In this document: piece by piece, positions 6,001-12,000 of the stretch
How the letters are laid out: each line of letters starts with the position of its first letter
How positions within the stretch are numbered: the first letter of the stretch is position 1
From: a virus
UHGV virus genome: UHGV-0354001
DNA length: 39,506 nucleotides
Reading direction: 5' to 3' (one strand)
Program-made: the position numbers

Positions 6001-9000
6001 GCGGGTTCTGGATGGTGACCTTATTTCCGGATGGGAAAAACGTCAGGTGCTGAAAGAGGACAATGGTAACGTTTCGCAAACGGCAAAATCCCCGGCAGAG
6101 CGCAAGAGAGCGCAGCGGGAGCGCGAAAAGCTGCGGAAATATGATGCTGATTGTCACGATGAGTCACGACGTGTCACGCATCTGTCACGACAAGTCACGA
6201 CAGATAAAGATACAGATACAGAATTAAACCCCACACATAACGCGCGTATGCGCGAGAGTGCTCCAACCGGTGAGTCGCATGGTGCGCCGTTGCAGACAGC
6301 CGAACCTGAATACCTGGACGGCCTGAGCGAACCGATCGGGAAATTTTCGATGACTACTGTCTGGCAGCCGTCGTCGGATTTTCGACAACGGGCAGCAGTG
6401 TGGGGTATGGCTCTGCCTGAGCCGGAATTTACACCTGCAGAGCTTGCCGCATTCCGGGATTACTGGATGGCGGAGGGGAAGGTTTTCACGCAGGTTCAGT
6501 GGGAGCAGAAATTTGCCCGCCACGTGCAGCACGTCAGGGCACAGGTAAAACCAGTCAGCAAGGGGGTAAGCCATGCAGCATCAGGTGGCACGGCATCACG
6601 GGCAGTTCAGGAAATCCGGGCAGCACGCGAACAGTGGGAACGTGACAACGGATTTATCAGCAACGGAAACGGCCTGGAAGCTGTGGGAGCTTATGGGGGA
6701 GGTGTATTCGAACCGCTGGACACAGAAGAACGGGGCCGCACCTTCGAAGCTCTGGATTGCCCAGATTGGCGCGATGACTGAACAGCAAATCCGGCTGGTC
6801 TGCCGTCAGTGCATGGACCGCTGCCGGGCGGGTGAAACGTGGCCCCCGGACCTGGCTGAGTTTGTTGCACTGATTTCGGAGAGTGGGGCAAATCCATTTG
6901 GTCTTACGGTGGATGCAGTGATGGAAGAGTACCGGCGCTGGCGCAATGAATCCTGGCGATACGACGGGAGTGATAAATACCCGTGGCCACAGCCTGTGCT
7001 GTACCACATCTGCCTCGAAATGCGTACCAGAGGGATTGAGCGCCAGATGACGCAGGGTGAGTTAAAACGACTTGCGGAACGGCAACTGACGAAATGGGCA
7101 AAGCATGTTGGTAACGGGATGAGTGTTCCGCCAGTGCGACGACAACTGGAAGGGGCGAAACACCCGCAAGGGCCAACGCCAATTGAACGGCTGAAACAGG
7201 AATACGAACGCCGGAAGGCAGCTGGTTTTATTTGAATCTGAGAAACGATTTTGTCGGAGGAAATTTTAATGGAAACCGTATTTGACGCACTGAAAGCAAT
7301 GGGAAAAGCCACATCGGTAGAACTGGCCGCGCGACTTGATATCAGTCGTGAAGAGGTTCTCAACGAGCTGTGGGAACTCAAAAGAAATGGCGTCGTTGAT
7401 AAAACTGGTCACACCTGGTTTCTGGCTGGCGAAGGTGAATCCCGGGTAACCGAAGAGCGGCCAGTAAAATCTGAAGCACAGGATATGCTGACCGGAGAGG
7501 TCGAACAAAAAGTTACCGCAGACATGATGATTGAGTTTATCGGTCAGGATGGTGCTAAAACGTGTGAGGAACTGGCGGGTAAGTTCGGCGTCAGTACTCG
7601 CAAGGTTGCCTCCACGCTGGCGGTGGTAACCGCAACGGGGCGGCTGGCACGCGTTAATCAGAACGGTAAATTTCGTTACTGCATGCCGGGCGATAATTTA
7701 CCAGCAGAGCCGAAAGCCGCGCTGGTAACGGAAAGTGATGGTAAGGCCTTTCCTCAGCCAGCAGGTGCTGCGTTACCAGTCCGGGAAGCCGCAACACAGG
7801 AAGAAATTAAAACAGAAACTGTGGCGGACATTGTGCAGCCGTTGCCATCGTTTACCGAAACGCAAGCAGATGAGCTGATTTTTCCGTCCCTTCGCAGGGC
7901 AAACCTGGCGCTGCGCAGGGCGAAAAGTGATGTTCAGAAGTGGGAGCGAGTCTGCGCCGCGCTGCGGGAGCTGAACAAGCACCGGGATATTGTTCGACAG
8001 ATTACTGATTCTTCCCGCCGTGTTGTATCGGAAAAGTGATTGCCGGAGGCGCTTATGGCAAAAGTATTTACACCAGAAGAGCGGGAAGAAGTGAAGGCGC
8101 GCATTGTGGAATTCGTGCGCCTGAGCGGACGAGAAACTTTTCGACAACTGGCAGATAAAACGGGTGTCAGTAAGACCGCTATTCGTCGTTTATCTGGTGC
8201 GCTTGCGGCCAGTGGTGATGTCTGGCTCTCTGGTTGCGGGGTATTTCCATCAGAGCAGGCGTATCGCGTATGGCGTAAGACACCGGAGAAGGCTGCTGAC
8301 CCGACACTGATTCGAAAGTTACCAGACGGAGAAATACGCCGCTACGACAGGCGCCTGAATATAATCTGTCGCGAGTGCCGGAAGAGCGAAGCTATGCAGC
8401 GTGTACTGACATTTTATCAAGGAAATGTTAGGTATTTTAGACGTTACTAGATTAAAGAGCATTAGTTCAGATGTGAATTGACATTTTCATGGCGCAGGGT
8501 AGAGCCAGCGTGGTTGTCCGCTTTGCGTCAAAACCAGATATTACCAGATTTAGACATATATTCCCGATAGCCCTGCTCTGATGCTACACTCTGTGCTATT
8601 TTCATGACCCCAATAAAAATATTTATGACTATTGCTGATTTCAAACGGCCTAAATTGGAACTCCCAAACGGGGCAAACAAACTACTACTGCACTCTTGCT
8701 GTGCTCCATGTTCCGGTGAAGTGATGGAGGCGCTTCAGGCCTCGGGAATCGACTACACCATCTTTTTCTACAACCCGAACATTCATCCTCAGAAAGAGTA
8801 TTTAATTCGTAAGGATGAAAATATTCGCTTTGCTGAACAACACGGCGTGCCGTTTATCGATGCTGATTACGACACCGACAACTGGTTTGAACGTGCCAAA
8901 GGAATGGAATGGGAGCCTGAGAGGGGGATCCGTTGTACCATGTGTTTTGACATGCGTTTTGAGCGGACAGCGTTGTACGCTGCTGAAAATGGTTTCAGTG

Positions 9001-12000
9001 TGATCAGCAGTTCACTGGGCATTTCACGCTGGAAAAATATGCAGCAGGTTAACGAGTGTGGGCGGCGAGCTGTTGCGCATTATCCGGGTATGGTGTACTG
9101 GGATTATAACTGGCGCAAGCAGGGCGGCTCGTCCCGTATGATTGAAATCAGCAAGCGCGAAAAATTCTATCAGCAGGAATATTGTGGCTGTGTGTATTCT
9201 CTGCGCGATACCAATCTACACCGCAAATCTCAGGGACGCCCTCTTATCAAAATTGGCCAACTCCACTACGGAAAAGAAGAGAAGGAGTGATTTTATGGAT
9301 CACCTTTCTGATTGATTTCATATTGGCGAGGTGACGTGAGTTAAGTAGAATTGCTGCGGGTGCCTGAGGCTGTCTGCCTCAGGCATGAACACCAAAAGGC
9401 AGATAGAGAAAGCCCCAGTTAACATTACGCGTCCTGTAAGACGCTCAACATTAATCTGAGGCATATGGATGCGGATGAAAGAATTAAATAAATTCAGAGT
9501 GATAGACCTCTTTTGTGGGGCAGGTGGATTATCTTATGGTTTTCTTCATGGAGAGATGTCTGACTACTTTGAAAGTATCCTTGCTATTGATAATAATGCT
9601 GCAGCTATAAATACCTACAATGCCAATTTTGGTTTGCATGGAGTTCAGGCAAATATTGAGGAGTGGGCATCCAGCAATACTGTTCCTGAGGCTGATGTGG
9701 TCATAGGTGGCCCCCCGTGTCAGGGATTCAGTTTATTAAATAAGAATCGTTATGGTGATCACCGAAGAGCATTGTGGGAGCCTTATATGGATGTCATTGA
9801 GCGTTCAAGGGCTTGTATGTTCGTCATGGAAAATGTCCCCGGATTGCTGATAAGCGATGAGTTTGCGGACATTACGTTTAGAGCGAAATCCATGGGCTTT
9901 ATTCTGCTTAATCCAATGGTGTTGAATACTGCTGACTATGGAGTACCTCAGACAAGAAAACGAACGATAGCAATCGGTATCAAACGAGAACTCTTCGATG
10001 TGCATAGTATTCCGGCGTTCCCGCCAGCACCAACGCATCGTTCCCCTGATAAGGATGTCGCTTTGCCTGAATGGGTCTGTACGCGTGATGCAATTGGTGA
10101 CTTACCTGCTCCTGTTGGAACTGATATTCGTAATGAACTTCCTCCGCTGAACTTACATTTTGGGCGTAATCCCACACCTGTTTCTCTGGAGCGATATAAA
10201 GCGGTTCCACCAGGAGGTAACCGTTTCGATTTACAGAAAAAAAGACCTGATATAACCCCGGCGTGCTGGCTAAAAAAGAAATCTGGAGGGACCGATTTGT
10301 TTGGACGTCTGTGGTGGGACAGACCTTCAGTAACGATTCGTACTGAGTTTTTCAAACCGGAGAAAGGGCGATATTTACATCCGGAAGAGGATCGGCCAAT
10401 AACTCATCGTGAGGCAGCGAGATTAATGTCTTTTCCTGATAATTTCATTTTTACCGGTTCAAAAACTGAGATTGCAAAGCAGATCGGGAATGCTGTTCCA
10501 CCGCTATTTGCGGCAAAAATCGCACAATATGTGTATGGAGTTTTGCAGGGACGGTATAAGAATAACATCAGTAAGAATAGTCAAGCAGCCTGAAGGAAAT
10601 CCAGAAATGAATGGAGATTTGGTTGACAGCATAGTTGGTTTTGCTGAAGCCAGAAAGGAGTTTCATGCCCAATTGTTACTGAATACGCTCACAATTAATA
10701 CTGCCGGAGTTGTTAGTAACGCAGATAGCAGTAACAAAAACAGTAAAGCTATAGCAAGAGAAATTGCTCGCTTCTTGCAGGCTGAAACGATTGGTGAACG
10801 TGTTGCAGGGCAAACATCTGGTAATCAGTTTGAGAGTATCTGCGCAGAGTTTATAGAAAAAACCTTTTTTAAACTCAGCCACTTACGCCCTGGAAAATGG
10901 AATGTACATCAGGTTTCTGGTAGAAACAGATTAGAGATAGCTAAATATGAACAATATGCCCATCTTATAGCATTGGATAGTGCTGCAAAAAGTAATCCTC
11001 AGCTAGCTGCTGCACTGGGGAGTGATTATACGATTTCACCAGATATTATTGTTGAAAGAGAACCTGAATGTGATCAAGTTATCAACAGTCCTGAATTACT
11101 GGTGGATGATTCTGTTACCCGCATGTCAGCTCTCAGGAGTTCGAATGGTGGGAAACCAATATTACACGCAAGTATTTCCTGCAAATGGACAATAAGAAGC
11201 GACCGGGCCCAGAATGCTCGTTCTGAGGCATTAAATCTTATTCGCAACCGTAAGGGAAATCTCCCTCATGTAATGGTTGTTACTGCTGAGCCTACTCCAA
11301 GTCGTCTGGCGTCTATTGCTCTTGGTACTGGTGATATAGATTGCGTGTATCATTTTGCGCTTTATGAACTTATATCAGCAGTTGAAATACTGGGGCTCAG
11401 CGATGCAGCTGACATGCTTTCCGTGATGGTTAATGGTAAAAGATTAAAGGATATTTCTGATCTTCCCTTGGATCTTGCAGTCTGACATCTCTACGTAAAT
11501 AGAGTCTGTCATATTTTAACTGTGATGGCACGTCATTGACTTCAGTACATTTTTACTAACCCGCTTCGCGGGTTTTGTTTTTTCCTGGCATTCTGGTTTA
11601 CAATCCACACGCCAGCCTGAACAACTGGCACCTGCTGCGCCAGCAGAGACAACCGATGGCGCACGATACCAAATTACACAATTCTGATGATTCTGCCGTC
11701 TTTGCCAGCAGGCACGGGCGGCGTTCCCGCACTTTCAAATCTGACTGGTTCCAGCATCCCCCATGCACTGAAGAACAGGCCGAATGGCTAATTCATAACT
11801 ATCGCAGACGCGGATACGAGATTAAGAAAGCCCTCAGCCTCGATTATCGTCACTGGATAATCTATGTCAGGCTCCCTTATTCCGAACGCCCACCGCGCCC
11901 ATCCCGCACATACCAGCAACGGATCTGGAGGTAACGTGCGGATATTACTTCGACCTGTTCTGGTACCGGAACTCGGGCTGGTGATCGTTAAGCCGGGCAG

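Follow-up and report, generated by a model that had tools for sequence, protein, structure and literature searches.

The stretch of DNA analysed here, called the window below, is the 39,506-nt UHGV virus genome UHGV-0354001, an Escherichia coli lambdoid prophage whose early region is 98.8% identical to the prophage of strain EC08. Downstream of its replication genes it carries three accessory genes, all on the plus strand, in the order queH, a C5 DNA methyltransferase (M) and an NgoMIV-family endonuclease (R), the last two forming a restriction-modification (R-M) pair, M-R. We consider it likely that the region 8451-11655 is a mosaic, in which the slot between DUF977 and DUF968 holds two independently inherited accessory modules, queH and M-R, next to each other. 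The alignments show that M-R has taken the place of the mok and hok reading frames and of fbi in a hok/sok type I toxin-antitoxin locus. The mosaic reading is carried by the identities of the genes, the junctions around them and the independent distribution of the two modules.

The first-pass annotation of this stretch had named the three genes as QueH, a methylase and an endonuclease, and Pfam matches (PF02677, PF00145 and PF09015) bear it out. It had also placed them in a known variable region of lambdoid phages. This agrees with related prophages, in which the DUF977-DUF968 slot holds queH with hok, queH with hok and rem, queH with DUF1971, DUF551 with M-R, or an sce7726/'beta family' pair with M-R. 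Both the variable region and the kinds of cargo in it are thus already known; what is mildly new is the R-M pair fused into a hok locus and the widespread phage-borne queH. In 5426 complete E. coli genomes, from which all of the genome counts below are taken, the queH region (8451-9300) was found in 1032 (984 at at least 80% coverage) and the M-R region (9480-11560) in 60 (59 at at least 99% identity).

The R-M cassette in a hok/sok locus

Comparison by blastn with a queH-hokD prophage (L001) gives homology over 8007-9462 (98.8%) and again over 11557-12200, and L001 positions 6014-6300, including the hokD coding sequence, are replaced by 9463-11556 of the window. The left junction of the cassette lies at 9462-9466 and the right junction at ~11555-11557. 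Its GC content is 40-45%, versus 50-56% in the flanks. In the alignment the left junction falls directly after the mok Shine-Dalgarno sequence, CTGAGGC, and the ATG of M at 9469 stands 7 nt 3' of it, at the position of the mok ATG in intact loci. The fbi element of L001, GCACCCGCA, which lies 3' and is complementary to the 5' end of the mRNA, is absent from the window.

Upstream of the cassette stands a remnant of the hok mRNA leader, 92-99% identical to the leaders 5' of hokD in L001 and two further loci (L003 and L004). Rfam model RF01794 matches 9358-9538 at 61 bits against a gathering score of 59, with only the first ~90 of 157 positions aligning well; the score is 115-120 bits in intact loci and 66-70 bits in the other chimeric M-R loci. 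A hok-type promoter precedes position 1 of the model by 7 nt. Its TTGGC and TAGAAT are invariant in the leader alignment, including strain A34, whose upstream sequence otherwise differs. As to the model itself, RF01794 is named 'sok antitoxin', matches the strand of the hok coding sequence and ends at the hok start codon (also in L001, 5908-6083), and in practice it detects the hok mRNA leader. A minus-strand open reading frame (ORF) of 48 amino acids (9318-9464) overlaps the conserved RNA leader and is regarded as spurious.

Two structures that the first-pass annotation had described as signals of a three-gene block are present, and both belong to the hok locus instead. The internal hairpin, placed earlier at 9361-9383, is real at 9360-9386 (11-bp stem, 5-nt loop; folding of 9358-9490 gives z = -2.9 versus shuffles) and is the 5' stem-loop of the hok leader. 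The terminal terminator has its homologue in the hairpin that follows hokD in L001, and hence in the terminator of hok loci free of M-R; it also occurs in a queH-less M-R locus (L002, from strain A34). Taken alone it does not rise above chance, as the scan gave 2 terminator-like sites versus 3.7 expected in shuffles; what lends it credibility is its homology to a terminator that ends hok loci. A RyhB-like hit at 11524-11581 (24 bits against a gathering score of 55) is essentially this terminator hairpin, and was treated as chance.

Table 1. Coordinates of the cargo region and its flanks in the window
Feature	Position	Strand	Description
DUF1627/DUF977	7251-8450		5' flank of cargo; a DnaT-like replication gene also lies upstream
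Non-coding region with extended -10-like motif TGCTACACT (8582-8590)	8451-8624	+	Motif invariant across queH loci
queH, B12-independent epoxyqueuosine reductase	8625-9290	+	221 amino acids from conserved start; PF02677
hok-type promoter, from promoter scan	9323-9351	+	-35 TTGGCG (9323-9328), 17-nt spacer, -10 TAGAAT (9346-9351)
hok mRNA 5' leader remnant	9358-9462	+	105 nt; 5' hairpin 9360-9386, second stem-loop, mok Shine-Dalgarno GAGG 9458-9461
Inserted M-R cassette	9463-11556	+	Replaces mok/hok coding region and fbi; from blastn, alignments and GC content
C5 DNA cytosine methyltransferase (M)	9469-10593	+	PF00145; TIGR00675
NgoMIV-family type II restriction endonuclease (R)	10607-11485	+	PF09015
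Intrinsic terminator	11558-11585	+	7-bp GC-rich stem (11558-11574) and T-run; common to hok loci
Small ORF, DUF968, RusA, Q	11656-14043		3' flank of cargo

In the hok/sok locus of plasmid R1, the Sok promoter is located within mok, a few codons from its start. By analogy, the Sok promoter of the present locus was probably lost, having lain in the replaced segment. We found no convincing replacement on the minus strand of 9463-9520, by eye or by promoter scan, though a weak fortuitous one may exist there, and Sok might also be supplied in trans by other hok loci.

The fusion recurs outside the complete genomes. Among 120 IMG/VR contigs with this hok leader, 104 lead into Hok and five into M-R, all five with queH upstream, and in these five chimeric contigs there is no Hok match downstream of the leader, which runs straight into M-R. 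Of the remaining 11, some stop within ~150 nt of the leader and the others have a normal mok start without a nearby Hok match. Given that M-R was the only foreign cargo fused to the leader in this set, we rejected the idea that the hok leader is a general platform for foreign genes. Some loci of the set are irregular in other ways: L145 and L172 have the leader and mok start with the Hok coding sequence only ~3.3 kb downstream, which suggests insertion inside the locus, and in L118, which also has the leader and mok start, the following 3.5 kb hold DUF968 but no Hok. In the complete genomes O16:H48 PG20180054 and 'Sel(eng_pnp-mut)' the match to the L001 hokD locus begins only at query position 1064; these two strains have the hokD coding part but lack the leader of the prophages described here.

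The queH-less M-R loci share 9335/9346-11576 of the window, that is, the promoter hexamers, leader, M-R and terminator, and therefore these parts travel together. The closest M-R pair, with an M protein 80% identical, lies in a lambdoid prophage of Klebsiella michiganensis and is homologous across the coding part only (9487-11478, 72% nucleotide identity). Because it has no hok leader, the fusion arose within E. coli phages. The donor of the cassette was not identified; with one genome taken per species, the best matches to R are at most 78% identical and taxonomically scattered.

Compared with the hok/sok loci of lambdoid prophages (hokD/mokW), the window has the same promoter hexamers, 5' hairpin, leader as far as the mok Shine-Dalgarno sequence, homologous terminator and site upstream of DUF968. 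It differs in having 2.1 kb of M and R instead of the mok/hok ORFs, the fbi element and the region of the Sok promoter. R-M insertions that are borne by prophages or of substitution type have been described (Furuta et al. 2010, PMC2853133). In those, likewise, an R-M pair sits on a prophage, resident DNA has been replaced and GC content is below that of the flanks, whereas here the DNA replaced is the toxin part of an addiction module and the junction reuses a translation-initiation site. Neither 'hok' nor 'toxin-antitoxin' occurs in the text of that paper, and our literature search, which also covered NgoMIV in E. coli prophages, found no paper on an R-M pair inside a hok locus.

Predicted expression and specificity of the R-M pair

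Given that the cassette begins essentially at its own start codon, it brought no promoter and no upstream sequence from its donor. In the lysogen, M-R would most likely be transcribed from the hok promoter, starting near 9358 and carrying the 105-nt hok leader. Translation of M would then start from the mok ribosome-binding site and that of R from a separate site of its own, 13 nt beyond the stop codon of M, and the transcript would end at the terminator common to hok loci. A further step, which we regard as rather unlikely, is that the retained leader is functional, so that the R-M pair is expressed and timed by the RNA logic of a type I toxin-antitoxin system. This logic may comprise a weak constitutive hok promoter and a leader that folds around the mok ribosome-binding site; Sok RNAs from other hok loci in the same cell might also act in trans as repressors.

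Alternatively, the leader could be merely a recombination scar, with read-through from queH or the phage early-right operon driving M-R, or else the pair could be inactive and decaying. The loss of the Sok promoter and fbi would fit this, as would an RF01794 score that barely passes its threshold and a hok-type promoter known from sequence alone. We nevertheless find this alternative unlikely. The leader, with its -35 and -10 hexamers, accompanies M-R into three different upstream contexts. In 59 genomes, which span several serotypes, both ORFs are intact and at least 99% identical. R keeps its catalytic residues and M its methyltransferase motifs, and an active R without an expressed M would be lethal.

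The two proteins are readily assigned to families. M matches PF00145 (185 bits, E=4e-54) and TIGR00675, and its translation shows FCGAGG, PPCQ, ENV, QTRKR and GNAVPP, which correspond to C5-methyltransferase motifs I, IV, VI, VIII and X; RefSeq starts the protein at the in-frame ATG 9475. R matches PF09015 (423 bits, E=6e-127) and is 66% identical to NgoMIV (PDB 1FIU) over 281 amino acids, full length (E=1e-118). It is identical to NgoMIV at all eight positions compared: D34, D140, K187, R191, D193, R194, E201 and R227. From the published NgoMIV structure, we take D140, K187 and E201 to be catalytic, and R191, D193, R194, D34 and R227 to be the contacts to CCGG/GCCGGC. Given the 66% identity and the intact key residues, the site of R is predicted to be GCCGGC.

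As in the NgoMIV system of Neisseria gonorrhoeae (G^CCGGC), and in 53 of the 54 scorable loci from other species, M precedes R on the same strand. Unlike that system, the present pair lies on a prophage and is joined to a hok leader, and its M belongs to a different C5-methyltransferase lineage, ~25-30% identical to the usual partners of NgoMIV-like enzymes. The specificity proposed for M would follow solely from its stable pairing with R. In P2-like prophages of Yersinia kristensenii (L090) and Salmonella Cerro (L091/L092), methyltransferases of the M lineage (75-77% identical) have an HNH nuclease as partner in place of an NgoMIV-like enzyme. In both, the HNH nuclease gene overlaps the M-lineage gene, and in the Yersinia locus a PvuRts1I/SRA-like gene lies close to the pair.

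Avoidance of GCCGGC was considered as a sign of R-M activity and rejected, because depletion is equal in the M-R-free relative L093: there are 3 sites in the 39.5-kb window versus 13-25 expected, and 3 in 44 kb of L093. GCCGGC and GGCGCC are each ~4-8-fold under-represented in both the window prophage and L093, and CCGG has ~2x the frequency expected from base composition.

If active, the R-M pair would restrict incoming unmethylated DNA and so defend the lysogen, and it would act as a prophage addiction system in place of Hok.

Distribution of queH and the R-M pair

The two modules vary independently. A junction probe (9250-10000) finds queH and M-R adjacent in 57 genomes, M-R lacks an adjacent queH in three, and in 741 queH is followed directly by an intact hok locus at the site where M-R sits in the window. 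About 94% of queH loci are without M-R, and in one locus (L216) queH is accompanied by neither hok nor M-R. The three queH-less M-R loci match the window only from ~9338-9346 onwards. Upstream of M-R they carry DUF551 and a small ORF (strains 2014C-3051 and S1-CAM-01-A) or the sce7726/'beta family' pair (strain A34). The A34 pair, at 1856-3491 of its locus, consists of an sce7726 family gene and, converging on it, a gene for a 'beta family protein'; the two stand in the place of queH and could be another defence pair.

Other species agree. There was no queH within 4 kb in any of 80 NgoMIV-family loci from species other than E. coli. The Klebsiella michiganensis M-R orthologue lies just upstream of DUF968, and DinI, not queH, stands upstream of it. 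Further upstream in the accessory region of this prophage, at 1034-2671 of L088/L089, is a gene for a 545-amino-acid protein with dCMP/MafB19-type deaminase domains.

Several points weigh against the mosaic reading and the roles that we attach to it. As many as 57 of the 60 M-R loci adjoin queH, far above the frequency of queH. Nothing resembling a terminator separates queH from the hok promoter, and the modules could be co-transcribed by read-through. Use of the hok promoter, the activity of M, R and QueH, and the physiological roles of both modules are all deduced from sequence. M is distant from the partners of NgoMIV-like enzymes in other phyla, and homology at that level leaves its specificity unestablished. 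Lastly, the depletion of GCCGGC is not confined to carriers of M-R.

The adjacency in 57 of 60 loci is best explained by a single origin, on a backbone that carried queH and hok, with linkage thereafter, given that the cassette is near-identical everywhere and more than half of the genomes (>30) belong to one near-clonal O157:H7 lineage. The first-pass annotation had raised the possibility that QueH is coupled to the R-M pair as a third component, and had proposed co-occurrence in related prophages as the check. In favour of one functional unit, with QueH as an R-M accessory such as a base-modifying partner or a regulator, the three genes are adjacent, on the same strand and without an intervening terminator, and queH is directly upstream in nearly every M-R locus. 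The distribution largely refutes this already, considering the excess of queH loci without M-R, the three intact M-R loci without queH, and the orthologous Klebsiella pair and 80 NgoMIV-family loci that do without it. QueH is, moreover, 80-86% identical to housekeeping tRNA enzymes, and no PADLOC defence-system model matches it. We therefore hold a three-gene unit to be very improbable.

The queH module and its surroundings

QueH matches PF02677 (DUF208) with 221.5 bits (cut-off 23.5; E=1e-65) over profile positions 1-174 of 175. The longest ORF is 8604-9290. The conserved start is the ATG at 8625, as the ATG at 8604 reads ATT in a homologous locus and RefSeq uses 8625. The upstream intergenic region reported in the first-pass annotation is therefore present, but its end moves from 8603 to 8624. 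The cysteine motifs CCAP, CxxC and YCGC align with those of Thermotoga maritima QueH (PDB 7LC5), in whose published structure we take them to bind metal cofactors. The phage protein is 80-86% identical to the chromosomal QueH of Enterobacterales, including Erwinia, Providencia and Photorhabdus. These homologues lie in core loci, between purL and glrK in Erwinia and near tmcA and purC in Providencia.

The extended -10-like motif TGCTACACT is invariant in five aligned queH loci, though homology otherwise begins at different points, in some only ~10 nt upstream. It also stands ~30 nt 5' of the chromosomal Erwinia queH, and may be a promoter element of queH. Accessory phage genes that carry their own expression signals are known as 'morons'. 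Given that close homologues occupy core chromosomal loci and that the motif is common to the phage copies and Erwinia, queH was apparently captured as such a gene, -10 element included, and its likely source is a chromosome of the Enterobacterales. The window differs from the chromosomal Enterobacterales and T. maritima cases, with which it shares the cysteine motifs (and, with Erwinia, the -10-like motif), in that queH lies here in a prophage of a species that uses QueG.

The epoxyqueuosine reductase of E. coli, QueG, is cobalamin-dependent. Because the host enzyme needs cobalamin, we infer that QueH would complete queuosine on tRNA-Asp, -Asn, -His and -Tyr without it. In PHROGs the phage QueH family (phrog_3217) is listed as of unknown function. 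Only one isolated phage, HannyBb, was found to carry queH, followed there by hok/mokW, a DUF968-type HNH gene and Q.

It is scarcely credible that QueH belongs to a phage 7-deazaguanine DNA-modification pathway that shields phage DNA from restriction, as its substrate, epoxyqueuosine, is made on tRNA by QueA, and DpdA/Tgt, QueC, QueD, QueE and FolE are not annotated in the EC08 early region (98.8% identical) or in L093, the late region of the window (18985-28496) not having been annotated gene by gene. Phages do use enzymes of the queuosine pathway on their DNA, and yet no QueA, QueG or QueH was reported in the viruses analysed by Hutinet et al. 2019 (PMC6884629).

Further features lie outside the cargo region. 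Downstream of Q, at 14254-14503, are three tRNA genes, which ARAGORN assigns to Met(CAT), Arg(TCG) and Arg(TCT); the first is tRNA-Ile according to RefSeq in homologous prophages. Rfam models match STnc100 at 14579-14787 (+, 132 bits), AsxR, the 'anti-stx2 sRNA' (small RNA), at 14791-14843 (-, 63 bits, exactly at the gathering score) and DicF at 3177-3228 (-, 61 bits). Downstream of the tRNA genes, an ORF of 656 amino acids (14996-16966) occupies a position that in L093 is annotated as a SASA-family carbohydrate esterase, and most of it (15050-17645) is without a nucleotide match to L093 or L094. In strain JKHS016 the match to window 8040-12000 is in two pieces, spanning ~1 kb more than the query, and an IS5-family transposase is annotated within it.

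From the perspective of prophage evolution, queH and the R-M pair appear to be neighbours through shared descent on one phage backbone, and not through function. In the M-R loci, R-M has taken over from Hok, one post-segregational killing module in exchange for another, with the changeover right at the start codon, which suggests that prophage accessory slots recycle expression signals. If the retained leader does prove functional, the R-M system would be run by the regulatory shell of the addiction module that it displaced. In bovine Shiga toxin-producing E. coli lineages (O157:H7, O111 and O103), the pair might, in addition, hinder gene flow. The literature search, which included DUF208, found no paper on prophage queH. 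Prophages supply ~19% of complete E. coli genomes with an epoxyqueuosine reductase that needs no cobalamin and has an apparently native promoter. Such a gene could free the maturation of queuosine-tRNA from the supply of B12, and this would be a form of lysogenic conversion.

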